Below, piece after piece: positions 3,001-32,975 of a stretch of DNA of 64,000 nucleotides. Both the position numbers and the translations under genes were made by a program. Numbering within the stretch: the first letter of the stretch is position 1; each line of letters opens with the position of its first letter. Below the pieces are notes generated by a model. The model searched no databases and was not told the DNA's origin. It saw nothing but the letters and a program-made list of their open reading frames with translations. Origin of the DNA: Patescibacteria group bacterium (lineage in GTDB: Bacteria; Patescibacteriota; Patescibacteriia; XYB2-FULL-38-15); contig JBAZEY010000004.1 of NCBI GenBank assembly GCA_041653675.1, positions 1,105-65,104 of the forward strand. The letters are read 5' to 3'.

Positions 3001-6000
3001 AGTGGCTTGGCCGACTTTGGCGTATTTATGACAAGACGAAACCGTATCGCAAAGAGTCTTTTGTCGTCCGGTTTGCGAATCAAAAGTTGAAGTCGTACCC
3101 GAACAAGTCAGCCACTCGCCGCAGACACGATCGCGACGGACCTGGACAAGACGGTTGGAATCATTGCTATTATTGGCAACAGTAATGGGCGTTCCGTCCT
3201 TTTCCAACAAAATCACATAAGGCGAATTATAACTATAGTTTGCGACATCCTGACAACCGAGAGTGGACGACTCGCCGGGGAATCGCTGCGCGCAATCGCT
3301 GTCCGCGCCGCAGAAATCGCCCCAATAATATTCATGGTTCGGTGGGCGAAGAATTTTTTCCAAGCACCTCTTACAATTTTCCCCGCCTTGGCTACAATCA
3401 ATCGGCGCGACAAGCCCGCCGGGATCACCCACCTTTTTTTCAGAACTTAAATAAGTCGCGTTGGCATTTTTGTTTAATTGCGGATTGCTTGTGTCGTTGA
3501 ACAAAACACAACCGCTTTTTTGCGAAGCCATTCCATTACAATTTCCCGAACTAATTTTGTCGTTGTTAACATAATAATAAGCCGCGCCGTACGGATCGTC
3601 GGAAGTGTCGCCCGGATCGGTAAATTTAGTGCATTGATCAGCCTGCGGAATACATTCACCCGCCCAACCGGAATACGGGCAAGAACGTTTGTTATAAGAG
3701 ACAGTGCAAGTTGTTCCAGCCTTACCCGTAGCTGTCACACCCGCCGTGCCACCGCCAACCGGAACCGGACCGCAACGACAAACACCATCGCCGTCTCCTT
3801 CCGGATCAATGCCGTCTCCCGGTTTATCTTGACAAACATAGGGCAGACTGCAATTGGCATCACCATTTTTCCAAATATTATAATATCCGCCGTTGAAGTT
3901 TGCCGGATCGCAAGGAGTAAGCGGGTCGGATGCTTTTTCTTGTTTTTTAAACCATCCGGAAACATTTTGCCCGCCAAGATTTACATTATCTTTCCATTCA
4001 CAAAGTCTATTTCCCGGATCTTTAAAATATAATTTTCCGCCGTCGGTCGTGGTATACTCTTCGCAACTCAAGAATCCAACTTGGCAGAGAATTCTGCCGG
4101 TCGGAGAATTATATAACGCCGGATCGGCCAGGAGATTTACCGTATTGTAAACCGGCTTGCCGCTATCGTCGATTTTCACATTGCCCGCGGCATCCAAGGT
4201 CGGCGAACCGAATTCAGCGCAACCTTTGTTTTGCGCGGCGCATTTATACGCATCGTTCACCACGATATAGGCAAAAGAGTCGGTTGGAATAGTAACGTTG
4301 TCAGACAATCTTTCCTCGTCCGAGAGAGACGGATCACTATCGTTTTCCGTATTAAACGTCTCCATGCTCGCCGCTATGTTGTTGTTGGTCTTTAATAATT
4401 TAGCGCAACCGGCCGCGTCGGGCGAACAAAGCCGCGAGAATGATTTTAGATAATGAAGTCCGTTCGCGCGATCATAGTAACTCGCGCAACCGAGTTGGGC
4501 TTGCGGCAAAAGCGCGGAAAGAACACATTCGTTTCGTTCACTCCACGATCCCCCGCTCGCGACACAAAAATCCAAACTGGTAATTGATGTGTTAACCGCG
4601 AAAGACCGGTCGCAGGAAGTTGGCGTCACCCAAGAATTTTTAACCACATAAATGTACGACTGAATTTCTCTCAAAATAATATTATCGAGATAAACCGGCG
4701 TCGTTCCGCCCGCCGCGGCAATTCGTAAAGTTTCGCCTCCGCCGACAACATCCCAATCAACATAAACCGGACCAAGTGAAAAATATCGCCAGTCAAAAGA
4801 AAGATTAGTTACGTTTCTTGTCGCTGAACTAAATCCCTTATCAGCGGAAGTGGCGCCCAAAAATTTAATATCCAATCTGCTATTTCCCTTGGCCCAAAAA
4901 GACAAGGTGTAAAAGCCATTTTTCCGGACCGAGGAAGCAAGATTTTTATCTATCGTCCCCGTGGCGCCGAAAGACAAAGATTTTCCGCCGACAACCAATG
5001 ATTCGGAACTTATAGTCGGTATGTCTGCTTCATCCCAACCGGTTGCCGCGCCATCGGCGGCGTCATCAAAAGTATCATTCAAAATTACCGCCGTGTTTGC
5101 TCCGGCATTTCCGCGATAAGCCCGGCATCCGACCGCTTCGTTTCCACATGATCGTGATTCGGGCAAATAAACATTATAAGCACATTCACTCTTTACCGTG
5201 TCCCATCTCCCCCCCGATGAGCCGCAATCACTGGCGCTGGAAATTGTTTTGCGGTATGGGTGGCAATCGTCAGTCGCGACGATTGTTTTGGAATATAGAC
5301 GATAATGTTTTAAACCGGCCGCGTCATAAAATTCTCGGCAGTCAGGATTAGTTAAAGTATCAGCTTTAGTACAAAGGCCAACCAAAGAAAGTCCATCGCA
5401 AGTTAAGCCGTCGGGCATAAGAGCCGTACATGGAGGAACACCGCCGTCCGGAGAAACGCCGTTACCCGGATCGCTGTCCGAAACCGGAGCGCTAACTACG
5501 TTACTCATTTTCAAATTCCAAGTTTTTAACTGATATCCAGTCGTATCAGATCCCTCCCAAGTATAGAAAGACTTCGAAGTCGCGCCTGGTTTTTCGCAAC
5601 GGCGGACATAATTGAAATTTGCCACGGCTTCATTTTCCAAACTCGTGAATTGATCGCAGCCAACATCCGCGGCGCTGCAAGTTCGCCCGGTCGCAGGAAT
5701 AAAATATACCGGAAATTTATCTTGTTCAAAATCAGTTTCAACTTGTTTAAAAGTCTGATAGCCAACGCACTCGGCCGGACAATAATCATCAGGATAATTA
5801 GCTACGCCTGGCACTGACGGATCACCATTTGTCGGTCGGTATTCATCGCAGCCCACGTCTTTTTCTTCGCAAGCCCTGGCAAAATTTCCGCATTGCTCGG
5901 CATCGTTTGTTTTATTCAATGCGCCGGAGGCGGTGTAGTCATAGCAAGAATAGTAATCCGGCGCGGTTTTTAGATAAAGCGCTTCGCCCGTTCTTCCCCA

Positions 6001-15507: not shown

Positions 15508-16215
15508 CTACTCTCTTACCTCACAAATTTCAAAATTATATTTTATTTTCTCGCGTAATTCTTGCAAAAATTCGGCCGGATACGCCTTTGTTCCACGAAA
15601 TTCCGGCGCAAGAATTTTCTCCCCCGCCCGAAATTGCTGTAAATAATATTTTTTCGCCCCCTTAATAAATTCCGCGATCTTTAAAATGTCTTCCTTAACA
15701 TGAAGTCCCGGAACAATTGTGGTGCGAAATTCATATTCTAAACCGCTCCGCATTACAATACCAATACTCTCTTTAATATTATCAAGGCTCACCGCGCCTC
15801 CAACAACTTTTTCGTACGATTCTTTTTGTAATAATGTTTTTATATCCATCGCAATATAATCAATTAATTTCTCCTCAAGGAGCGCCTTAAGCATTTCTGA
15901 ATTAGTTCCATTAGTATCTAACTTTACTAAAAATCTAAGCGCTTTAATTTTTTTTATAAATTCTGGCAAATCGGGATAAAGTGTCGGCTCTCCTCCGGTA
16001 ATACAGACGCCGTCCAGGAGTCCGCGCCGTGAATTCAAAAAATCAAAAAAAAATTTTTCTTCAATAATCTCCGATAATTTAACTTTTTTCGGATCAATCA
16101 ACTCTGGATTATGACAAAAATGACAGCGAAAATTACAGCCAACAGTAAAAACCGTGCAAGCAATTTTGCCGGGATAATCGATTAAAGTTAATTTTTGTAA
16201 TCCACCAATAAGCAT
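15508..16215 (-). CDS. nrdG: Anaerobic ribonucleoside-triphosphate reductase activating protein (radical SAM)
   Basis: CNFRCHFC radical-SAM cluster motif; sits next to nrdD. Confidence 0.9.
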   Translation of the reverse strand: MLIGGLQKLTLIDYPGKIACTVFTVGCNFRCHFCHNPELIDPKKVKLSEIIEEKFFFDFLNSRRGLLDGVCITGGEPTLYPDLPEFIKKIKALRFLVKLDTNGTNSEMLKALLEEKLIDYIAMDIKTLLQKESYEKVVGGAVSLDNIKESIGIVMRSGLEYEFRTTIVPGLHVKEDILKIAEFIKGAKKYYLQQFRAGEKILAPEFRGTKAYPAEFLQELREKIKYNFEICEVRE

Positions 16216-16283
16216 AGGAGCATTTTATCACAAAACACGACCTCCATCAAAGGGCCGTGTTTTATAAAACTCATTTCTATCAT

Positions 16284-16433
16284 CTAAACTTCCTCTATCT
16301 GTTTATCGTAAGTCTTTCTTTCTCCAAATTCTGCTTGTTTCCCATCATTCCATTGGCTTACCGGGCGAAGATAGCCGACAACGCGGGAATAAATTTCACA
16401 CGCCTGCCGCTTTGTTTGTTTTTCCTCCGTCAT
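16284..16433 (-). CDS. Stand-alone glycyl-radical domain of class III RNR (49 aa), split from nrdD
   Basis: Hand translation MTEEKQTKRQACEIYSRVVGYLRPVSQWNDGKQAEFGERKTYDKQIEEV. The RVxGY...NxGKQxE segment matches the NrdD C-terminal glycyl-radical motif. It is below the 60-aa cutoff of the ORF track. Confidence 0.55.
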   Translation of the reverse strand: MTEEKQTKRQACEIYSRVVGYLRPVSQWNDGKQAEFGERKTYDKQIEEV

Positions 16434-16464
16434 ATATTTATTGTTAATTTATTAATTTTATTAA

Positions 16465-18495
16465 TTAACCCTTATACCCAATTTCTTCATCGCACTTCGG
16501 GCAGAAAGGATGCTCACCTGAGAGATAACCATGTTTTGGGCAAACACTAAAGGTTGGCGTCAGAGAAAAATACGGCAAGTGAAATTGGCCAGCAATTTTT
16601 TTAACAAGCAATTTTGCCGCATCGCCGTTAGGCAACCTTTCCCCGATAAAGCCATGCAGCACCGTACCTCCAGTATACCGCGTTTGCAGATCATCTTGCA
16701 AGCGCAAGGCTTCAAAATAATCGTTGGTAAATCCGACCGGTAAATGAGTAGAGTTTGTATAATAAGGAACAGCTCCTTTTTCTCGGTGAGCTTTTTCATT
16801 AGCAACAATAATTTCCGGATATTTTGCTTTGTCTTTTTTCACCAAGCTATAACTCGTGCCTTCGCCCGGAGTTGCTTCAAGATTATAAAGATTGTTTGTC
16901 TCAAGTTGATAATCCATTAGTCTCTCCCGCATAAAATCCAGAACCGACTTGGCAAAATCTTGTCCTTCTTCTGTCGCGATATTCCTTCCTAAGAAATTGA
17001 GGCAGGCTTCATTCATTCCAATCAAACCGATGGTATTAAAATGATTTCTCCAATATTCATTAAATCTTTCTTTAATTGGTGCAAGGTAATGGCGGCAGTA
17101 AGGATAAAGGCCCTTGCCGGTTAAGGTTTCTACAACCTCCCTCTTCATTTCAAGGCTCTTTTTGGCCAAATCCATAAGCCGTGCTAGGCGATCAAAAAAT
17201 TCTTTTCTGGTTTTTGAAAGATAACCAATGCGCGGCATATTGATGGTTACAACGCCAATTGAACCAGTCAAAGGATTGGCCGCGAAAAGTCCGCCACCTC
17301 GTTTTCTAAGTTCACGATTATCAAGACGCAGCCTACAGCACATTGACCGCGCGTCCTCGGCCTTCATATCGGAATTTACAAAATTAGCAAAATAAGGAAT
17401 GCCATATTTAGCCGTCATTTCCCAAATCGGATCAAATTCTTTCTTTTCCCAGTTAAAATCTGGCGTAATATTGTATGTTGGGATAGGAAAAGAAAAAACT
17501 CTGCCTTTCGCATCTCCGGAAATCATCACTTCGGCAAAAGCCTGATTAAACATATCCATTTCTACCTGAAATTCTCCATACTTTTCTTTTTGCGGCACTC
17601 CGCCAATAATTACTGCTTCATCCGCCATATTTTTAGGCGGAATAAGGTCCATAGTGATGTTGGTAAATGGCGTCTGAAAGCCAACGCGAGTAGGAACATT
17701 AACATTAAAAACAAATTCCTGCATGGCCTGCCGGACATCCTTGTAGGTCAAGTTGTCATAACGAATAAACGGAGCAAGAAGCGTGTCAAAATTAGCAAAA
17801 GCTTGGGCGCCGGCTACTTCACCTTGAAGAGTATAAAAGAAATTAACAATTTGTCCCAGGGCACTCCTCAAATGTTTCGCTGGTTTTGATTCTATTTTGC
17901 CCATCACTCCCCCAAATCCCCGCGTCAACAAATCGTGAAGATCCCAACCACAGCAATAAGCCGCCAAAATTTGTAAATCGTGAATATGGAAATCACCGTC
18001 CATATACGCATCTCTAATTTCTGGCGGATAAACTTTATTCAACCAATAATGAGAACTTATTGCCGAACTAATATGATTGTTCAAGCCTTGCAAAGAAAAA
18101 GCCATGTTACTATTTTCCCGGACTAACCAATCCAATTTATCTAAATAATTGCCCATCAGCTGATTTGAATCAACGAGAGCATTTAATTCGCGAATTTTAG
18201 CGTGCTGATCGCGATAGAGAATGTAAGCCTTGGCCACCCTCATTTGTCTCGCCCTAATCAAAACTTCTTCTACGATATCCTGAATTTCTTCAACAGCCGG
18301 TATTGACCGAGGATGAAATTTTTTATTTAAAACTTTCATCACTTGATCTGAAAGCCGGTTCGCTAACTTCTCATCCTTTTCCCCAGTAGCCTCTATTGCT
18401 TTCCCGACCGCCACCGCAACTTTTCCTTGATCAAAATCAACAATACGGCCATCTCTTTTTCTTATTTGGGTGATTTTATTCTGACTATATATCAT
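16465..18495 (-). CDS. nrdD: Anaerobic ribonucleoside-triphosphate reductase (class III) large protein, lacking the glycyl-radical tail
   Basis: N-terminal ATP-cone; C-terminal Zn-ribbon CPKHG...CPKCDEE; the ORF then stops (GYKG*) before the glycyl-radical motif. Confidence 0.9.
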   Translation of the reverse strand: MIYSQNKITQIRKRDGRIVDFDQGKVAVAVGKAIEATGEKDEKLANRLSDQVMKVLNKKFHPRSIPAVEEIQDIVEEVLIRARQMRVAKAYILYRDQHAKIRELNALVDSNQLMGNYLDKLDWLVRENSNMAFSLQGLNNHISSAISSHYWLNKVYPPEIRDAYMDGDFHIHDLQILAAYCCGWDLHDLLTRGFGGVMGKIESKPAKHLRSALGQIVNFFYTLQGEVAGAQAFANFDTLLAPFIRYDNLTYKDVRQAMQEFVFNVNVPTRVGFQTPFTNITMDLIPPKNMADEAVIIGGVPQKEKYGEFQVEMDMFNQAFAEVMISGDAKGRVFSFPIPTYNITPDFNWEKKEFDPIWEMTAKYGIPYFANFVNSDMKAEDARSMCCRLRLDNRELRKRGGGLFAANPLTGSIGVVTINMPRIGYLSKTRKEFFDRLARLMDLAKKSLEMKREVVETLTGKGLYPYCRHYLAPIKERFNEYWRNHFNTIGLIGMNEACLNFLGRNIATEEGQDFAKSVLDFMRERLMDYQLETNNLYNLEATPGEGTSYSLVKKDKAKYPEIIVANEKAHREKGAVPYYTNSTHLPVGFTNDYFEALRLQDDLQTRYTGGTVLHGFIGERLPNGDAAKLLVKKIAGQFHLPYFSLTPTFSVCPKHGYLSGEHPFCPKCDEEIGYKG

Positions 18496-24062: not shown

Positions 24063-27000
24063 CTATCTCACGGTAAACTCACCGCTTCGCTCTTGACCCA
24101 CAGTAGTCATATCACTGCCTCTAAATAACTCTCCTTCACTGGCAGAAAGACTCCAGACAAGAGCAGATCCAGTTCCAGTGCTAAGATTGTATCTCCCCGC
24201 GCCAGTTGTGCCATTGTAAACAATCCGGAAATTGTGCAAACCTCTTGATAAAGTACTGATCACTAGATCTCTTCTGCAATCCGGTGTAAGTCCTCCGCCG
24301 GGAGCAGCACATATACTGGCATTAGTTATACCAACCTTATGGCCATCAATATAAACTTCAAAAACATCAGCCGCATTATTACTGCTCACATGCAGACTTA
24401 TCGTCGCACAGTCCGTCGCGTCATCCATACAGCCGTCGGTTCCACTATCATCATTCGGATCGCAAGCGTCAATTATTTCATCACTGTCAGTATCTGGGCT
24501 ATATCTTAGCCTGCAGGTTTCGCCAGCTGGACAATCACCAGTAACTCTACAAATCCGAGAAGCAGTAGCGCTACAGGTTCCCGTAGATTCATATTTTCTA
24601 TTATCACAAGCCCGACCCGTGGCGCAAGTAATCGCGCAAGACGAAGGACTGCAACCCGGCGAAGTCGGTGTGGTGAGATCTTGTGGCTTGCCCCAAGGAT
24701 TTGAAGTATCAACACAAATCCAACTCGCGGGATATGCCGGCAGACGGCTATCGCATTGTTCCGCGCCGCTCACTGTCCCATCGCCGCAAGTCGGACCGCT
24801 CGCCGTTCTTAACGTGCATTCACGGCTGCAATAATTACAAGTTGATCCATATGGCGCCGTACAAGGCGTACCGTTTACATCTTCGCCGGAATCGCACGTT
24901 TCTATTCCCGCTCTCGTAAATCCATCACCACAACTAGAATTCTGGCAATCTACACAAGCGTCTGTATCTACATCATTTGCGTCATCGCATTGTTCACCAC
25001 CTTCAACCGTGCCATTGCCGCATTCGCCGGTTACTGTGCAAACACCCCAACCTTCATCTCGCCACTGGCATTGTCTTACATCTCCCGATACCTCGCATTC
25101 CAAGGTTCTAACGCGCGGATATCCCGTCCCGGCTTCCGGAGAACACAATAAACATTCTTCTTCTGGTTCCGCGCAGTCCGAGTTGCTCTCACAAACTACA
25201 TTAAAATCATCTGAAAGAATGGGGCTGGCCGGACTCAAGTGTTCATCAACCGGAACACAAACTCCTCTCCCGGACAATAAATTTCTATCACATTCTTCTC
25301 GACCATCGGTCACGGTATTTCCGCAAAATGGCGCCGACCCGACACAACCCGCCGCGCAAATCGGTCGACAAGTGCTGCCCGGACAATCGCTGTCCACACG
25401 ACACGACGATCTATCATTATCACAAATTTTTCCATAATTTCCATTAAGACCTTCATCGTCGCACCGCTCGCCAAATCCGCTTTGCAAAATTCCATCTCCA
25501 CAATAACCGCCACTCATTCGGCAGACAGTAGAACATTGATATTCATTCGTCGGCAATGTCCCGCCTCCCGGAATTCTTCCTCCGCCCGGACCGCGATCGC
25601 AAGCTTCACCCGTATCAATAATCCCATTTCCGCAAGTAGGAAGACACGACCCCCAATCATTCCATCGACAAGTAGCTAAATTACAAGTTCGGCTTTGCCG
25701 ACCCGTTCCACTGCCGCAAGATTGTTCGCTCGTGCGGCACGTTCCGCCCGTAGCAACGCAATCCAAATCACTGCGGCAAAAACTTGTCGGATCCGAAGAA
25801 CATGTATTTAATAAACTCGGTTCGCATTCTTCGGCTTCGTTTTCCGGCGTCGCCGGATTATCAACATTTAGTATTCCATCACCACAAACTCCACCCACAC
25901 TGAAAGTTGTACCATCGCAAACATTTTCATATTTAATGTAGGCTGGAATAGCGTCTCTAAACCAACTCCAACTCGGAAGAATTATCGCGCCCGATGAATT
26001 AGTAAGCTTGTGTTCCAAATCACCGCCAATATTATAAAATCCCGTAGCTGATTCGTAACGATATTGGTAAATATGAGACAAATCGGGACAGTGGTAAGAT
26101 TCTGCGCTCGTGTTCCAACAAGTGTCAGGATTATAAGGATCTACGCAACCCTGAAATTTATTTACCGGATCTTGTGGTAATCCTCCGCCGAGTTCCTGCC
26201 CAAGCACGGCCCATGAATCCCACTTGCTCGTGGAAATCCCTCGAACATACGAACCGGCTTCCAGTTTTGGCGGATAACCTCGCGTCATCATATATCTTTC
26301 CACCTCGGCTTTGATTTTATCTAAATCAGATAAACGTTTAACATCACGGGCCAATTTATCTTTTGGCGCATCACACAAAGATTGTGTCGGAGTTTGTGGA
26401 CAATCCAAATCAGCCGAACAAGGAATCGCTTGATCATCTTCGTCCGTGACAGTTGCCGCGCCGCGCTTACAAACTTTATTATTTTCCAAATTAATATTAA
26501 AATTCCAATTTTCTACCAATTGATTATAAATATCAATTGTGTCCTGGCTGGCATCTTCATTATATGAAATCAAATAAACGTTTGTATAAATGTCTGGCCC
26601 GGAACTAGAGCCGCCAATAAGCGCCGGCTGGTTTGCCGCGGAAACATAAATTGTCCGACCATCTTCCACGGCTTGATATTGATCAACCGTTTTCCCACTC
26701 GGAGACGCCGGTCTGAATCCTTGGGCCGTGTACCAATCGGATAAAGCAAGGTGGTTTTCATTTGTATAAATTCTAATACCGATCGCGTCGGGCGAAGATT
26801 GGCAAGATCCGCCTTCCGGGGCGCACGGATTTTCCGTGTTACAAGGCAATTTGGAAAGGGTACAATAACTCCCCTGAACAAATAAGAAATATTCTCTGAG
26901 TAAAAAGTCAGATGATCCCGGCGGCTCCGGCGGATTATTTACAATCGGCGGATCGCTAACCGTCGGTAAATCATCGCTAAAACCAAGCTCTCCTCTGTCC

Positions 27001-30000
27001 TGGCAATAATATGTTTCAAAATTATATGTTTCATCAGCTAACCCTTCGCCCGTCACGCCAAATCTATCTGGCCATGGATTTTCACAAAGAAAAACTATCG
27101 CGTCGGCCCCGCTACCCAACACTCGTCCCACGGTTCGGGGAGATAAAATTGTATCGGCAGTAATTCTCGCTGAAACTAAAATTCTTGCTTCTCCGTTTTT
27201 ATTTTCCGCTTTCGCCTCTTGGCTAGCATTAAGTTCGCAAACTCCGCCGTCTCTACAATCGCTCGCGCTGTGACAAATTGCAGTCGATTCATTGGAACAA
27301 GCGCCTTCGGGATTTAAGCTAACTACTGTTGGATCGTTAGACACCCAATCTTCCCATTGCCAAGCGTACACCCCGGGCAAGGAAGAAATCGCTCTCCCCC
27401 GCGTGTCTCTCGGTATGGCGGAAAAATTGTGTGTTTCACCACTCTGCGTAAAAACATGAACCTCCGGCGTAAATGTCACTTGGCTCAAAGCACAAATGTC
27501 ACCGCCCGTCTTAAACGACCATTCATAAATTTCCCTGCCGCTGTAGGCCGCGGGGTATTCACCGGATAAGCTACCTCCACCCAACGCCACGCCTTTTGAA
27601 TTTCTAATCCCCTCAATCTCGGGCGTTGTAGAATTGTCACCTAAAATCAAAACTCTATAGTCATTATCACTATCAAAAGCTTTAGTTGGACTAAAGCTTA
27701 CTTCCGTCACCAAATTTCCACCTTTATTTACAACAACAGACGACGCTGTTCCCGGCCAGACGCACCACGGACTTCCCGGCGCGGCGCTCGCCGGCTCGCC
27801 GAGCAATGATTGCCCAAATTTATTGACGAAATCTTTTACTTGGCTAAAAATCTTTAAATCATTCTCAATTTTATTAATCGGCTTAACCAATATTCTCGCA
27901 ATCGGCGGAGGCAGCCACTTCTTTATTTTTTCAAAAAATTGCCAACCGGATTTTCCTTCGCCGGTCCATAGAGCTAATTGTACCGTTCCGTCAGGACACG
28001 TCCCGCCGTAATTGCCGACGACTAAAATATTACCCGTGACGCTCGCTGTTTCCATTACATCGTCAAATGTCACAGAAATTCTGGCATTGCGGCAAACTTC
28101 AACCGCTCCTGAATCACAACCAACCGCGCCATCCCGAGTGGGATCGCAGTTTGTCACTTTTGGTTTAAAGTAGCAACATGTGTTGCGGCCAACTCCCAAT
28201 TCGCAATCAGCGTCAGTTGTGCAAGATTGTGAAGTTGTTCCTGAACATATATTAGAAGTTGAAATACACGACAAACGAATTGCACTGCAATCCTGACCGC
28301 CGCAGCGCAAAGTCAAATCGCCGCTGTCGGATTTTCCCTCTGTCGCGGCTGAAATTTCCGTGGTGCTGGAATTTACTCCGGCCGCCACGTCCTCCGTGGC
28401 AAGATCAATTGCTTCGGCCGTTTGGTATGGATCAATTCTCGCGTCCGTGACTGTTCCTTCATTTAAGCAAGTATCACTGCAACCCGGCCCTGGAGCGTTC
28501 CCATCGTCGCAATCTTCACCGCGTTCTTTCGCCCGATTTCCACAAACTCCCCCGCCAGCCACAGATCCTTCGTGTTGGCAAATATTATTACATCCATCCC
28601 CCGAACGAGTATTTCCGTCATCACAATCTTCGCCAATTTGAATTATGCCATTACCACAAGTTGAATCATAACGCGCGTTTGATCCTTCGTTCAAACAAGT
28701 CGCATTACAACCATCAAGCGTTGCCGTATTGCCATCGTCACAGTCTTCGCCAAATTCTTTTACGCCATTTCCGCAAGATGGATAATTATTATCATTGGTA
28801 ATTGTTGCCACTCCTGGATCAGCCGATGCCCAGCCCCAATTATAATCCATAGCACCAAGCTGCTGGCCGTTCGGGCTACAGAGATCTGGCTCGCTGAAAG
28901 GCGTGGAAGAATAATTTTGCGTCGCGCCGATAAAATTCAAAATCGCGTTTTGCGGATCAACTGCCACGCGATCCACGGCGCAAGGACTGGCATCATCTTT
29001 AGTTTTGAAAGTCCAAGAGTAAGCAGAAAAAGCCGCCGGGTCGCCGGCCGGATAATTTAAATCAGTCAAATGGACGCCGCTCGTTGAAGTAACACGATCA
29101 GAAATAACGGCGCGATAATAAGTATTCGGCGTAAAGAGCACTAAAGGCTCAATAACCATTTTTTTTGCGACCGAATCGTAAGAAGTTCCTGCCAGAGAAA
29201 CTTCCTCCAGAGCTCTCGTTCCTTCATTTAAACAAGTTGTCGCGTTGCAGTTGGCCGGGAATGGAGATCCGTCACAATCTTCACCTTCTTCAACCAGGCC
29301 ATTACCGCAAACCGCGGCGGCGCCATCGCTGCCGATATTTAAACATGTGGTGCGATTACAACGCTCCGGAAATGGCACACCGTCGCAATCTTCACCGGTT
29401 TCGCGGCGATCATTGCCACAGTACGAACCATAAAGCGCGTTTGACCCTTCATTCAAACAAGTCGCGCTGCAACCGTCGCCTGCCGTCGCATTGCCGTCAT
29501 CACAATCTTCACCGGGCTCAATCACGCCATTGCCGCATTTCCAAATATAAAGATTAACATTTGCCGCGCTCTCCACGCTCGCCTGATTCATGTTTGTATT
29601 AAATTCCGCGCCGACTTCCGCGTTAGCGCAAGCATCACTGCAGTTCGGCCACGCATTTTCTACTCTTGGGTCTGTAAAATTAATTGTCAAATTTCCTGAG
29701 CCAAATTTACTTTCACTTGGAATTCCGCCGGTAATTCGAACCGGCAAACCAACTTCTGTTTCCGCCCGAGCCGTGGCAACTTCACTCGGAGTAATACTAC
29801 CAGCCACAGTGGCTTTTGAAATATCTGACGAAGTCCAGCGCCAAGGACTATAAGCGCTGCAATCAATTGTTATGCAAACATCGCCGGCCGCATAACACAA
29901 ACTATCATAATTCTGTGTCGCCCCAATACTTACTAAAGTCCGTTCATACGGAGAAACCCCAACTAAACCGATATCACACGTCTCGTCGCTGTCGCGGGTT

Positions 30001-32975
30001 TTAAATTGCCAAATATAATCGCCACCTTCCACTCCATCTCGGTCGCCATCCAAGAAAAATCCCCCATCCGGACAACCGGCGCCTCCAAGACAGCTTTCTA
30101 TTCCTGTGCCGGCAACCGCGTCACTTTTCAAAGTCACCTGATACCAAGTATTTTGCGTCCACTTTCTTCCTACCGGCAACAACTTAAGTTCAAAACCATC
30201 TTGATGGTCATCAATGTCACTAAATCTAACACTGCTGCCAGTAACCTCTGCTTTCGTCGTACAGGTTTGATCAGAACAGCTTTCAACTAAAATATTTGAT
30301 GTATTTACTGATGCTGGATTTATTTTTGTCGTGAAGCGCGCCGTTATTGTGGCGTTAACACAAACTCTCTCTCCTCCATCTCTGCCAGACCATGGTGAAG
30401 GTGAAGCCGGCCCCGGCGGTGGGGGATTGCTGCAGCTTTCTACCACTTGCGGATAAATCGGAAGTTGGCCAGTGGAAAATTGCCAGAAATAATACCCTTT
30501 ACCCGCGGCCGCAGCGCACGCTACGGCGCAACTGCCATCACGGCAACATTGCTGGCCGGAAGAACAAGTGGCGCCCGTGCGACAATCTTGAACTATAAAA
30601 TTAACACTATTTCCCGTTGCTCCCCCAGAAGTAACATTAACCGGACCGGTTTGGGTTCCGGTCGGAACAGGCGTAGAAATTTGTATGCCGTCAGTTGGAG
30701 TAACAGTCGCAGGAGTTGACCGATAAAAATTAACTAAAGCCGACGCGCCAAAGCGCTCGCCATCAATTCTCACCGGCAAATCAATCGGTCCATTGTCCGG
30801 AGTAATTTTACAAATTCCCGGACCGGCCGTTCCAGAATCAACCGTAAAATCCGATGTTGTTAAATCGCTTGTATCATCAGACTGGCCACCCGCGGTTCCA
30901 GCAGTCGTAATTTTTATAACATCTGTAACCGCGCCGGTCGGAACTTTTACAATAATTTGATCGTTTTTCCACCAATCAGCTCCGCAAGCCGCAGGAAAAT
31001 CTGTCGCGGCCAAAAGATCCGCGCCGCCGATATCTTTAAAAAATACTTGGCCGGTTTCATTGAGAAAATTGGCGCCAAAAATTGTCACGTACTCGCCTAT
31101 TGGCCCATGCGTCGGAGAAAAACTTAAAATTCTTGGCGCTTCGGCCGTGGCGACAACTTGGAAATTAATTGGATTGCTGTTTTCACCGCCAACCACGACT
31201 TGTACTGGAACCGTAGCCGGAGCGATTAAAGGTACAACCGCGCCAATGCTCGTGGGAGTCCAGAGACTAACTCGTTCTGCTCGTGTTCCGCCAAAAATTA
31301 TTTCACTTGTTCCTTGTGTCGCGCCAAATTGAGTGCCAGCAACAACTACTTCAATTCTCGGCTCGCCATTATCCGGCGTAATTGAACAAATTCCCGGCCG
31401 GCTTGTATCATTTATATCAAAATTTGGCAAAACCGGACCGCGCTCATCATCAGTTTGATCGGTATAGTCAGCTGCGGTCGCGCCGGTTGGCGGAGGCACC
31501 ACAACTTTTACCGGACCATCAGTCGCGCCAGCAGGAACAACCGCGATAATCTGATTATTTTGCCAAGTAGCTGAAGCAGGACAAGCCGGCGTTCCAGATA
31601 AAACATTATTAAAATAAACTTGGCCGGAAATATCTCCAAATCCTTGGCCAAAAATTGTCACGTAATTTCCTACTGCTCCATCGTTTGGCGAAACGGCAGT
31701 AATTTCTGGTAGAGTTCGGCAAACTCCGCCAATACATGATCCTCCGCGGCAATCTGTTCCGCTCGTGCAAGATCCTCCGTCGCAAGTTCCGCAATCCGCG
31801 CCACCACAATCAATATCTGTTTCATCCGCGTCCTGTCGCCCGTTAAAACAATGCGCCGCCCGGACAATTACGTCCACGCCGCCAGAAGTAGTATTATTGG
31901 AATCAATATCAAAAGCTTTCGTCGTCAAAGTATGTCTTGATCCAGCCGTAACGCCAGTTGTATCCCAATCAAAAATTGATGAATAGTCACGCGGCGTTGG
32001 ACCAGAGGGTGCATCAGTTCCAAGCGTTCCGCCATTTGAAAAATATTCCAAATAAGAAATTCCCGCGTCGTCTGTCGCGTGCGCCTCAATCGAAACTATC
32101 GCGTCAGCCGAAACAGAAGCGCCCGGATTGGGAGAAGTGATTCTTACTTCCGGCCCGGTCACGTCAACTAAATTTCCTGTTGTAAAATTGGCCGTACAAT
32201 TTGGCGCGAGTCCGCCACAAACTAAAAATTTTCCATCAGTACTTCGGAGACCGGTTGCCGCTTCCACCGTAAATTCCGTGTCCGCGTCAAAACATTTTCT
32301 GTCAACGTTCGGTGCCGGACAATTGGCACTCGGAACGAATTCCACGACCGTTCCGGAAGCGCTCGCTGTTCCGTCCACTAAACTTCCGTCAGCCGTCACG
32401 GTTAAATTTCCCGCTAAAGTTGTCGCGTCAACATTTTTGTTAAAAACAACGCGCACGACAACATTTCGAATTGGTATAGCGCCATTCGGCTGAATTCCGC
32501 GGACAACAAATGAATCAGACGGCAAACCACCGCCACCGCCTCCTCCACCACCGCCACCGCCTCCTCCACCACCGCCACCGCCTCCTCCACCACCGGTAAT
32601 GCCCGTCGCTTCCATTAATCTATTCATAACATACTGGGTGATGCCAAAAGAGAAAATAATAATAATCAAACCTATCAAAGCATTAACCAGAATTTTTTTG
32701 GCCTGCGATATCCGCTCCTCATTGCCGCCAGCCGTCATCCAAACAAAACCGCCGTAAATTACAATGGCTACGGCGACAATCCCCAAAAATCCGAGCGCTA
32801 CACGAATAATTTGCGCCGCGACCACTCGCGGATCTTCCGTCGGTAGAGCAATTTCATTTCCCACTTCATTCACCCCAAAATCCTGGGCGAAAATAGTTGT
32901 AGCAAACAAAAACGCACCCGTAATCAAAAACAGGGAAAAAAGAAATTTTAAAATTTTCTTCTCGTGTGGTTTCAT
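24063..32975 (-). CDS. Giant (2970 aa) Cys-rich cell-surface protein with N-terminal VirB2/TrbC-pilin-like double-TM domain and poly-Gly linker
   Basis: After the signal peptide (cleavage ...TIFAQ-D), LGFLGIVAVAIVIYGGFVWMTAGGNEE ... LIGLIIIIFSFGITQYVMNRL ... TGGGG parallels Ti VirB2 and RP4 TrbC. A run of about 24 Gly follows. Several CGNGxxExGEDCDDGNxxxGDGC repeats; beta-rich extracellular modules. Confidence 0.85.
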   Translation of the reverse strand: MKPHEKKILKFLFSLFLITGAFLFATTIFAQDFGVNEVGNEIALPTEDPRVVAAQIIRVALGFLGIVAVAIVIYGGFVWMTAGGNEERISQAKKILVNALIGLIIIIFSFGITQYVMNRLMEATGITGGGGGGGGGGGGGGGGGGGGGGGLPSDSFVVRGIQPNGAIPIRNVVVRVVFNKNVDATTLAGNLTVTADGSLVDGTASASGTVVEFVPSANCPAPNVDRKCFDADTEFTVEAATGLRSTDGKFLVCGGLAPNCTANFTTGNLVDVTGPEVRITSPNPGASVSADAIVSIEAHATDDAGISYLEYFSNGGTLGTDAPSGPTPRDYSSIFDWDTTGVTAGSRHTLTTKAFDIDSNNTTSGGVDVIVRAAHCFNGRQDADETDIDCGGADCGTCDGGSCTSGTDCRGGSCIGGVCRTLPEITAVSPNDGAVGNYVTIFGQGFGDISGQVYFNNVLSGTPACPASATWQNNQIIAVVPAGATDGPVKVVVPPPTGATAADYTDQTDDERGPVLPNFDINDTSRPGICSITPDNGEPRIEVVVAGTQFGATQGTSEIIFGGTRAERVSLWTPTSIGAVVPLIAPATVPVQVVVGGENSNPINFQVVATAEAPRILSFSPTHGPIGEYVTIFGANFLNETGQVFFKDIGGADLLAATDFPAACGADWWKNDQIIVKVPTGAVTDVIKITTAGTAGGQSDDTSDLTTSDFTVDSGTAGPGICKITPDNGPIDLPVRIDGERFGASALVNFYRSTPATVTPTDGIQISTPVPTGTQTGPVNVTSGGATGNSVNFIVQDCRTGATCSSGQQCCRDGSCAVACAAAAGKGYYFWQFSTGQLPIYPQVVESCSNPPPPGPASPSPWSGRDGGERVCVNATITARFTTKINPASVNTSNILVESCSDQTCTTKAEVTGSSVRFSDIDDHQDGFELKLLPVGRKWTQNTWYQVTLKSDAVAGTGIESCLGGAGCPDGGFFLDGDRDGVEGGDYIWQFKTRDSDETCDIGLVGVSPYERTLVSIGATQNYDSLCYAAGDVCITIDCSAYSPWRWTSSDISKATVAGSITPSEVATARAETEVGLPVRITGGIPSESKFGSGNLTINFTDPRVENAWPNCSDACANAEVGAEFNTNMNQASVESAANVNLYIWKCGNGVIEPGEDCDDGNATAGDGCSATCLNEGSNALYGSYCGNDRRETGEDCDGVPFPERCNRTTCLNIGSDGAAAVCGNGLVEEGEDCDGSPFPANCNATTCLNEGTRALEEVSLAGTSYDSVAKKMVIEPLVLFTPNTYYRAVISDRVTSTSGVHLTDLNYPAGDPAAFSAYSWTFKTKDDASPCAVDRVAVDPQNAILNFIGATQNYSSTPFSEPDLCSPNGQQLGAMDYNWGWASADPGVATITNDNNYPSCGNGVKEFGEDCDDGNTATLDGCNATCLNEGSNARYDSTCGNGIIQIGEDCDDGNTRSGDGCNNICQHEGSVAGGGVCGNRAKERGEDCDDGNAPGPGCSDTCLNEGTVTDARIDPYQTAEAIDLATEDVAAGVNSSTTEISAATEGKSDSGDLTLRCGGQDCSAIRLSCISTSNICSGTTSQSCTTDADCELGVGRNTCCYFKPKVTNCDPTRDGAVGCDSGAVEVCRNARISVTFDDVMETASVTGNILVVGNYGGTCPDGTVQLALWTGEGKSGWQFFEKIKKWLPPPIARILVKPINKIENDLKIFSQVKDFVNKFGQSLLGEPASAAPGSPWCVWPGTASSVVVNKGGNLVTEVSFSPTKAFDSDNDYRVLILGDNSTTPEIEGIRNSKGVALGGGSLSGEYPAAYSGREIYEWSFKTGGDICALSQVTFTPEVHVFTQSGETHNFSAIPRDTRGRAISSLPGVYAWQWEDWVSNDPTVVSLNPEGACSNESTAICHSASDCRDGGVCELNASQEAKAENKNGEARILVSARITADTILSPRTVGRVLGSGADAIVFLCENPWPDRFGVTGEGLADETYNFETYYCQDRGELGFSDDLPTVSDPPIVNNPPEPPGSSDFLLREYFLFVQGSYCTLSKLPCNTENPCAPEGGSCQSSPDAIGIRIYTNENHLALSDWYTAQGFRPASPSGKTVDQYQAVEDGRTIYVSAANQPALIGGSSSGPDIYTNVYLISYNEDASQDTIDIYNQLVENWNFNINLENNKVCKRGAATVTDEDDQAIPCSADLDCPQTPTQSLCDAPKDKLARDVKRLSDLDKIKAEVERYMMTRGYPPKLEAGSYVRGISTSKWDSWAVLGQELGGGLPQDPVNKFQGCVDPYNPDTCWNTSAESYHCPDLSHIYQYRYESATGFYNIGGDLEHKLTNSSGAIILPSWSWFRDAIPAYIKYENVCDGTTFSVGGVCGDGILNVDNPATPENEAEECEPSLLNTCSSDPTSFCRSDLDCVATGGTCRTSEQSCGSGTGRQSRTCNLATCRWNDWGSCLPTCGNGIIDTGEACDRGPGGGRIPGGGTLPTNEYQCSTVCRMSGGYCGDGILQSGFGERCDDEGLNGNYGKICDNDRSSCRVDSDCPGSTCRPICAAGCVGSAPFCGNTVTDGREECDRNLLSGRGVCVPVDEHLSPASPILSDDFNVVCESNSDCAEPEEECLLCSPEAGTGYPRVRTLECEVSGDVRQCQWRDEGWGVCTVTGECGNGTVEGGEQCDDANDVDTDACVDCQNSSCGDGFTRAGIETCDSGEDVNGTPCTAPYGSTCNYCSRECTLRTASGPTCGDGTVSGAEQCDSRLPAYPASWICVDTSNPWGKPQDLTTPTSPGCSPSSCAITCATGRACDNRKYESTGTCSATASRICRVTGDCPAGETCRLRYSPDTDSDEIIDACDPNDDSGTDGCMDDATDCATISLHVSSNNAADVFEVYIDGHKVGITNASICAAPGGGLTPDCRRDLVISTLSRGLHNFRIVYNGTTGAGRYNLSTGTGSALVWSLSASEGELFRGSDMTTVGQERSGEFTVR
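32528..32596. repeat. Perfect 3x tandem 21-nt repeat encoding the poly-Gly linker
   Basis: The unit gccaccgcctcctccaccacc occurs three times on the plus strand, in frame (7 Gly per unit). Confidence 0.7.

Follow-up and report, generated by a model that had tools for sequence, protein, structure and literature searches.

To our knowledge, the defining feature of glycyl-radical enzymes is a radical glycine that the catalytic chain itself carries at its C-terminus, with the small protein GrcA/YfiD as the sole known exception. Oxygen destroys these enzymes by cleavage of the chain at the glycine. The canonical class III (anaerobic) ribonucleotide reductases (RNRs), such as those of phage T4, Escherichia coli and Thermotoga maritima (structures 4COI and 4U3E), combine a single-chain NrdD with the activating enzyme NrdG. 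The locus discussed here is located on a 64-kb stretch of DNA from a Patescibacteria group bacterium (contig JBAZEY010000004.1), in the following referred to as the window, and shares with these systems the catalytic core, an ATP-cone, a Cys-His-Cys-Cys zinc ribbon, an RVxGY loop and an adjacent nrdG gene. However, the NrdD chain is broken between the ribbon and the glycyl-radical (Gly) loop, and the radical glycine resides on a separate polypeptide of 49 amino acids (aa), encoded by a small open reading frame (ORF) between nrdD and nrdG. In comparison to the single-chain enzymes, about 17 extra residues make up the new termini, with the core ending in DEEIGYKG and the peptide beginning with MTEEKQTKRQA. 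The three genes probably encode a functional two-subunit class III RNR, in which the Gly loop would be supplied in trans and activated by NrdG.

Small separate carriers of a radical glycine have been described as spare parts of pyruvate formate-lyase (PFL), i.e. GrcA/YfiD of E. coli and Y06I of phage T4 (PMC8683613). YfiD restores PFL that has been cleaved by oxygen at its radical glycine (PMC8683613). Such spare parts are known for formate lyases only (PMC13450708, PMC8683613); the question whether other glycyl-radical enzymes possess them has been raised (PMC8683613), and none had been identified as of 2026 (PMC13450708). RNRs encoded by two adjacent ORFs that together correspond to a one-chain homolog are likewise known, namely the class II enzyme NrdJa/NrdJb of Pseudomonas and a Thermus phage (PMC9669993, PMC3653736) and the class I enzyme NrdA of Aeromonas phage Aeh1 (PMC3045599). 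Their halves assemble non-covalently into an active enzyme (PMC9669993, PMC3653736, PMC3045599). In contrast to the locus in the window, they belong to other RNR classes, are broken at another point and do not have the radical element parted from the barrel; the Aeh1 split was caused by the insertion of a homing endonuclease (PMC3045599). Interrupted class III genes have been reported from phages, including the group I intron in nrdD of T4 and six cases of split nrdD (PMC3653736). While the phage breaks are either due to an intron, intein or homing endonuclease or recent and without explanation (phiAS4), the break considered here is ancient and conserved and consists of a 31-nt spacer without any such element. 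In the searchable literature, i.e. excluding subscription-only papers, neither such a split NrdD nor the stand-alone NrdD domains of about 85-100 aa that are discussed further below were found to be described.

On the minus strand of the window, which carries all features listed in the following, nrdD, the small ORF and nrdG are consecutive ORFs. The nrdD core (16465..18495), assigned from the ORF list, Pfam and NCBIfam, encodes a class III RNR catalytic subunit of 676 aa without Gly loop. Residues 10-99 form an ATP-cone, the allosteric activity domain (18199..18468; PF03477, E 1.1e-20), and the product ends with ...HPFCPKCDEEIGYKG and a TAA stop just past the zinc ribbon C652-P-K-H655 ... C665-P-K-C668 (16492..16542), from which it is separated by nothing but the C-terminal tail D-E-E-I-G-Y-K-G (16468..16491). 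The AT-rich intergenic spacer of 31 nt (16434..16464) reads ttaataaaattaataaattaacaataaatat and is followed by the small ORF (16284..16433), which starts with its own ATG and translates into MTEEKQTKRQACEIYSRVVGYLRPVSQWNDGKQAEFGERKTYDKQIEEV. Its glycyl-radical motif R17-V-V-G20-Y21 (16371..16385) contains the predicted radical site, Gly20 (codon 16374-16376), and lies downstream of Cys12 at Gly-8 (16398..16400) and of the basic residues K8-R9 that precede this cysteine. With respect to nrdD, the frame of the small ORF is shifted by +1, and additional stops are present in the spacer, which makes simple read-through from nrdD into the small ORF impossible. The third gene, nrdG (15508..16215), encodes a radical-SAM activating enzyme of 235 aa that scores 223 bits against the NrdG2 model TIGR02495 (cut-off 131) and matches Radical_SAM and Fer4_12 in Pfam. 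An earlier sequence-only reading of this DNA had described an nrdD that stops past its zinc ribbon, a 31-nt AT-rich spacer and a new ATG opening a 49-aa ORF with an RVxGY motif. These features were recovered as described, with the spacer at exactly this length and the whole arrangement on the minus strand. The same reading had regarded the glycyl-radical domain as separate, which holds for the half that bears the Gly loop; the zinc ribbon, on the other hand, stays on NrdD.

The two products divide the family profiles of NrdD between them. The core matches Pfam NRDD (PF13597) with 604 bits (cut-off 26, E 3e-181) over positions 1-529 of 562, i.e. the coverage ends ahead of the RVxGY motif, which is not on the NrdD chain, while the peptide matches positions 531-562 of the same model (E 1.8e-10). 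The NCBIfam models PRK08270 (1036 bits for the core, cut-off 548) and TIGR02487 (539 bits, cut-off 326) are split between core and peptide in the same manner. On the solved structures of T. maritima NrdD, the core is colinear with residues 99-611 and the peptide with residues 614-646, which places the break within the short stretch that links the zinc ribbon to the Gly loop. In T. maritima NrdD, the segment aligned with the ribbon is svCedgH...CpvC, just upstream of RIVGY, and the RVVGY of the peptide falls on this RIVGY itself (Gly621 in 4COI). The Gly loop of the peptide is complete, reading KRQAC-EIYSRVVG20YLRPVSQWNDGKQAEF. At E<=0.01, the peptide has no match to PF01228 and is recognized in Pfam by PF13597 alone and in NCBIfam by NrdD models alone. 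Neither database holds a model dedicated to the stand-alone peptide, and its homologs are labelled in the source databases as 'hypothetical protein' or with the name of the whole enzyme. Within the core, the adjacent Cys386 and Cys387 (17335..17340) of the motif RSMCCRLRLD, the presumed thiyl-radical (finger) loop that would take over the radical from the glycine of the peptide, occupy invariant columns in an alignment of ten sequences (A1); this region is of low confidence in both AlphaFold models described below.

The break is shared by nearly all close relatives. Among the 120 closest NrdD homologs (67-93% identity), 118 are truncated right after the ribbon, which is itself kept in 120/120; the closest named homolog, from Candidatus Falkowbacteria, is 83% identical. 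Only P0189 and P0221, both about 70% identical, are fused and read ...CPHCQHRAEVYSRIVGYLRP... across this region. The comparison of split and fused genes that the sequence-only reading had proposed thus yields close homologs that are mostly split at the same point. Nearly all of the 118 truncated homologs, and neither of the two fused ones, carry the tail motif C-D-E-E-[IM]-G-[YF], which may serve in docking or be the vestige of a loop. For the window protein, the predicted C-terminal tryptic fragment of the core is ...CDEEIGYK, and the peptide is predicted to release QACEIYSR and VVGYLRPVSQWNDGK.

Homologs of the peptide numbered 402 in a sequence search and carry source labels from Patescibacteria, Parcubacteria, Aenigmarchaeota and Micrarchaeota; the best 120 of them are all 41-83 aa long. 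When 1.84 billion cluster representatives were scanned exhaustively with HMMER, 3,228 matches were obtained. The best 150 of these are all 48-127 aa long; about 135 of them start with methionine and are devoid of a CxxC, six have a zinc ribbon of their own, and three or four resemble fragments of fused genes. Altogether, there are more than 130 clusters of stand-alone peptides at 50% identity. The 120 peptides share the near-invariant core K-R-[QT]-x-C-E-[VI]-[YF]-S-R-V-V-G-Y-L-R-P-V-x-Q-W-N-D-G-K-Q-A-E-F-x-x-R-K, with cysteine at Gly-8 in 120/120, arginine at Gly-11 in 116/120 and lysine at Gly-12 in 90/120. The acidic tail of the core and the basic N-terminus of the peptide might form a docking pair. 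Cys12 was also considered as a fourth zinc ligand. This assignment is unsupported, as the Cys/His/Cys/Cys ribbon of T. maritima NrdD does without such a cysteine and 33 of 45 fused relatives have it as well (the remainder having T in 9, N in 2 and A in 1); the second CxxC of fused relatives lies 12-17 residues ahead of the glycine.

For the analysis of gene order, species-representative genomes were scanned with the NrdD alignment, which resulted in 80 loci; this sample is biased, since L001-L005 had been retrieved via the peptide itself. A fused architecture was found in 40 loci. The split form with a short peptide as in the window accounts for 20, and a variant of it, in which RVVGW-LTP replaces RVVGY-LRP, for 14. 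In seven loci, a truncated or degenerate NrdD is accompanied by a Gly domain of 84-102 aa with its own CxxC...CxxC ribbon, four combine a complete fused NrdD with an extra ribbon-bearing Gly domain (L030, L050, L058, L060), and in one the contig ends ahead of the region. According to a hidden Markov model (HMM) of the peptide, every locus with enough downstream DNA has a Gly domain, which is either part of NrdD or encoded by the ORF that follows on the same strand. Likewise, the truncated core and an adjacent peptide ORF occur together in all related split loci with enough downstream DNA, and nrdG lies downstream of the peptide ORF in 41/43 related loci. As judged from these loci, the linkage between core and peptide is obligate.

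The closest locus for which DNA was available, L001 on a 567-kb JGI contig, contains the three genes in the same order and permits a comparison of substitution rates. Between the window and L001, nrdD shows 85% nucleotide identity and a ratio of non-synonymous to synonymous substitutions (dN/dS) of 0.024, and the small ORF shows 89% identity and a dN/dS of 0.035 (12.5 synonymous and 2.5 non-synonymous differences), while a dN/dS of 0.114 was obtained for nrdG. Purifying selection on the peptide ORF is as strong as on nrdD, and all three genes are strongly constrained. The small ORF is to be regarded as a translated and constrained gene.

The order nrdD core, peptide, nrdG extends from candidate phyla radiation (CPR) bacteria to Aenigmarchaeota, Micrarchaeota, Pacearchaeota, Woesearchaeota and Nanobdellota among the archaea. 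Three loci from Aenigmarchaeota (L002-L004) have this order together with an NrdD of 985 aa and an upstream nrdR, and it is also present in L005 from Micrarchaeota. The NrdD cores of the DPANN archaea in alignment A1 (L003 from Aenigmarchaeota and L005 from Micrarchaeota) share 63-67% identity with the CPR protein, which suggests that the split operon was transferred between DPANN archaea and CPR bacteria. In the RVVGW variant (L013-L023, L025, L031, L063), the small ORFs start about 60-185 nt downstream of nrdD and encode the peptide CIVYSRVVGWLTPVKNYNPGK, in which Trp instead of the canonical Tyr follows the radical glycine and LTP stands for LRP. Further peptide clusters display RVVGF-LTP, for example P0264, P0276 and P0286. 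In addition, the Gly motif is doubled in tandem in the small proteins P0241, P0248 and P0335, e.g. ...EVYSRVVGYLSPVSHWNEGKKEEWEVYSRVVGYLSPVSHWNEGKKEEW..., which may be real duplications or assembly artefacts. A phage origin of the peptide was considered and rejected: tblastn against 50,697 phage records gave only three weak matches, two of them under annotated nrdD genes and the third in an unannotated record.

The sequences between the genes bear on how the peptide is made. Across 32 short-peptide loci, spacers range from -20 to 187 nt and all three frames are represented (offsets 13/11/8), the small ORFs begin with ATG in nearly all cases, and the archaeal copies have strong GGAGG sites ahead of them. 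The variable spacers and frames, together with the archaeal GGAGG sites, indicate that the peptide ORF is initiated independently. In the window, the last 12 nt of the spacer, aacaataaatat, are kept in L001; the spacer has no significant RNA structure (z -0.34) and no match in Rfam, and a terminator-like site was not found on the minus strand of the region. An intron, intein or homing endonuclease at the break can be ruled out, as the spacer comprises 31 nt and no ORF. Downstream of the peptide ORF, an intergenic element (16222..16267) was detected by RNA folding and a promoter scan. It consists of a 17-bp hairpin (-23.8 kcal/mol, z -2.1) that overlaps a promoter-like TTGATG-17-TAAAAT with extended TG, and it is kept in L001 with one compensatory pair. 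This element may mark the end of an nrdD-peptide transcript, the start of an nrdG transcript, or both. Two other loci have unusual spacers. In L010 (Falkowbacteria, ~5050-5254), tccctaa is repeated in tandem within a spacer of 187 nt, directly ahead of the small ORF, and in L084 (Nanobdellota) the TGA of nrdD is immediately followed by the in-frame ATG of a 38-aa peptide ORF (~5020-5025). The latter is the only sampled locus in which plain read-through could yield a fused chain.

Under the two-subunit reading, the peptide would dock non-covalently on the core and place Gly20 in the barrel beside Cys386/387. NrdG and S-adenosylmethionine would abstract a hydrogen from Gly20, either before or after the peptide has joined the core, and the resulting Gly20 radical would generate a thiyl radical to begin nucleotide reduction, as in single-chain NrdD. 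After oxygen damage, only a 49-residue 'fuse' would then have to be replaced, and not a chain of about 725 residues; in addition, the detachable loop may ease access of the activase. Both advantages together are conceivable but rather doubtful, the first having been framed by analogy with PFL. The core, the ribbon and the activase mark the enzyme as a class III RNR by its genes, yet one that is devoid of the same-chain radical glycine by which the family is defined.

The arrangement would amount to a GrcA/YfiD-like principle that has become obligate. Like GrcA/YfiD, the peptide is a small separate carrier of the radical glycine that would presumably be activated by the activase of the parent enzyme and complement a parent without usable Gly loop. 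However, GrcA comprises about 127 aa and rescues a PFL that was originally complete and then cleaved by oxygen, while the parent in the window is loop-less and the peptide would be an obligate subunit. GrcA is also not homologous to the peptide (PF01228 vs PF13597), so the analogy is a functional one only, and GrcA coexists with a complete parent, which is not the case in the window; such coexistence was encountered only for the proteins of about 87 aa in L030, L050, L058 and L060. The suggestion of the sequence-only reading that the loop may act in trans in a GrcA-like manner is supported by the selection on the peptide, its co-occurrence with the core, the spread over CPR and DPANN and the presence of nrdG in 41/43 loci.

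Several points weigh against a functional two-subunit enzyme. The split enzyme is a prediction from the genes, and the visible part of the genome amounts to 64 kb, so that a second intact nrdD may be located elsewhere. The rationale of oxygen repair is borrowed from PFL and GrcA (PMC8683613) and is not a result of this analysis. The spacer contains no Shine-Dalgarno motif ahead of the small ORF; this is normal in the window, where a Shine-Dalgarno-like motif precedes only 7/40 of the ORFs with 150 aa or more and the sequence ahead of the ORFs is AT-rich instead. Finally, when core and peptide were concatenated and modelled by AlphaFold2 from an alignment of 62 rows, the core was confident, but the Gly loop (673-699) had a predicted local distance difference test (pLDDT) score below 50. 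A control with the naturally fused P0189 and the same alignment had equally low confidence at residues 684-692, and the docking result is uninformative because this fused control failed likewise. The structure prediction of a two-chain complex, as put forward in the sequence-only reading, was in this way carried out on the concatenated chain and left the Gly loop at low confidence in split and fused proteins alike.

Alternative explanations have to be considered at the level of translation, of the sequence itself and of the role of the peptide. Recoding, i.e. a frameshift, hop or bypass over the spacer, would produce one canonical NrdD chain and restrict the split to the DNA. It would account for two adjacent ORFs on the same strand that sum to a single-chain NrdD, and the directly abutting in-frame ATG of L084 fits as well. 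Yet, a +1 shift past several spacer stops would be needed in the window, the 32 split loci have no common geometry in their spacers and offsets, nearly every small ORF has its own ATG, which in archaea follows a strong Shine-Dalgarno site, and the spacer is without significant RNA structure. Moreover, each of the two products has gained its own conserved terminus, DEEIGY as the tail of the core and KR[QT]xC at the N-terminus of the peptide, and recoding is very unlikely on these grounds. In a single sequence, a lone stop with a short AT-rich insert could also reflect an error of sequencing or assembly, a recent indel or the decay of a pseudogene. The sequence-only reading had accordingly offered an insertion or indel as the origin of the spacer, a proposal that is to be rejected: 118/120 of the closest homologs, from many independent assemblies and sources, end at the identical point, the spacers vary among independent assemblies, both pieces have dN/dS values of 0.024-0.035, the arrangement is kept across two domains of life, and the stand-alone peptides form more than 130 clusters. 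The probability of such an artefact is close to nil.

Alternatively, the peptide could be a facultative spare part or radical reservoir for a complete NrdD encoded elsewhere, with the adjacent core being inactive or serving another role. The sister clade with a complete NrdD and an extra Gly domain (L030, L050, L058, L060) provides a precedent, and only 64 kb of the genome were inspected. This explanation is nevertheless improbable. The peptide HMM detected one Gly domain and no second one in the whole 64-kb window, and purifying selection on the truncated core is very strong. This core retains all invariant catalytic-core columns and is about 70% identical to fused relatives, and in the sampled loci each truncated core is paired one-to-one with a peptide ORF. 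The peptide could also act mainly on NrdG, as a regulator or decoy substrate that for instance buffers the activase, rather than as catalytic radical carrier. Short RVxGY peptides are indeed known substrates of glycyl-radical activases from studies of the PFL activating enzyme (PFL-AE). However, this would leave the core without any radical source despite its high conservation, and the peptide keeps the whole barrel-inserting segment (...LRPVxQWNDGKQAEF..RK) beyond the recognition motif of the activase, which renders a mainly regulatory or decoy role highly improbable.

The stand-alone NrdD domains of about 85-100 aa, which have a zinc ribbon of their own, occur in related loci of the Parcubacteria/Moraniibacteria type (L030, L050, L058 and L060 as well as L045, L056, L059, L028 and L043) and resemble the peptide in the type of Gly loop, the position between nrdD and nrdG and the presumed action in trans. 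They differ from it by a second CxxC...CxxC ribbon (NRDD positions 510-562) and belong to a separate NrdD clade. In four independent assemblies, a complete fused NrdD is followed by an extra ORF of 86-88 aa and then nrdG. The extra ORFs (L030:2354-2620, L050:5159-5422, L058:5176-5436 and L060:5201-5464) encode a CHDCG...CKxC ribbon and a EVYSRVVGYIRP Gly loop and match Pfam NRDD positions 510-562; in L058, nrdR is also present upstream. By its gene content, this is a GrcA-like spare-part layout for a class III RNR. In L045 and L059, the NrdD C-termini end near 5080 with the tails EQKTEVFLKVGEEE and DQKAEGFLVAGED, respectively, compared to EQKTEVYSRVVGY in relatives, and intact stand-alone domains are located at L045:5104-5403 and L059:5077-5385. 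These tails have the appearance of a resident Gly loop that has decayed next to a still intact stand-alone domain, a pattern that would be expected if a spare part had turned essential.

In a neighbour-joining tree (Kimura distances, 668 columns), which is indicative only, the RVVGW group is monophyletic with a bootstrap of 100, and the ribbon-bearing Gly domains together with the loci that have a fused NrdD plus an extra domain form a separate clade with a bootstrap of 99. The CPR short-peptide group receives moderate support (55-61) and includes one fused member, L011; the monophyly of all short-peptide (S1) forms is weakly supported (55-61). A single origin of the split is not favoured by this tree, which supports at least two, one for the S1/S1b forms and one for the clade whose domains have their own ribbon. 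On this basis, stand-alone Gly proteins appear to have arisen at least twice. Some loci that cluster with CPR NrdDs are titled 'uncultured Gammaproteobacteria', and their labels resemble placeholders. Elsewhere in the window, which has a GC content of 43%, a giant ORF of 2,970 aa (24063-32975, minus strand) encodes an N-terminal match to PF18895 (type IV secretion pilin-like), Ig-like domains (Big_5, Big_7, TIG) and DUF4215 repeats, and is probably a large surface protein.

ORFs of 40-55 aa are below the usual cut-offs of gene calling and end up as 'hypothetical' or uncalled; because they are missed in annotation, metabolic reconstructions may score the corresponding NrdDs as truncated or non-functional. 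Specialists in glycyl-radical enzymes or RNRs would be surprised to see the radical carried routinely by a separate mini-protein in two large radiations, and the loci open the question of spare parts in other glycyl-radical enzymes to a direct test. A broader scenario can be proposed tentatively, at somewhat less than even chances for its parts taken jointly. NrdD in much of CPR and DPANN would be an obligate heteromer with a disposable radical subunit of about 40-55 aa, the sister clade would possess genuine spare-part domains with some resident loops decaying, and the series from 'spare part' to 'obligate radical subunit' would have been selected for cheap oxygen repair in minimal genomes. 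If true, pyruvate formate-lyase would no longer be the only enzyme known to have a spare-part or detachable-radical system, and the loci provide candidates for class III RNRs in two forms, i.e. an obligate split and a spare domain beside a complete enzyme. They may also offer a natural system to address how the Gly domain exits and re-enters the barrel during activation, whether the peptide can serve as substrate of the activase while still unbound, and by what means anaerobes with tiny genomes survive transient oxygen.

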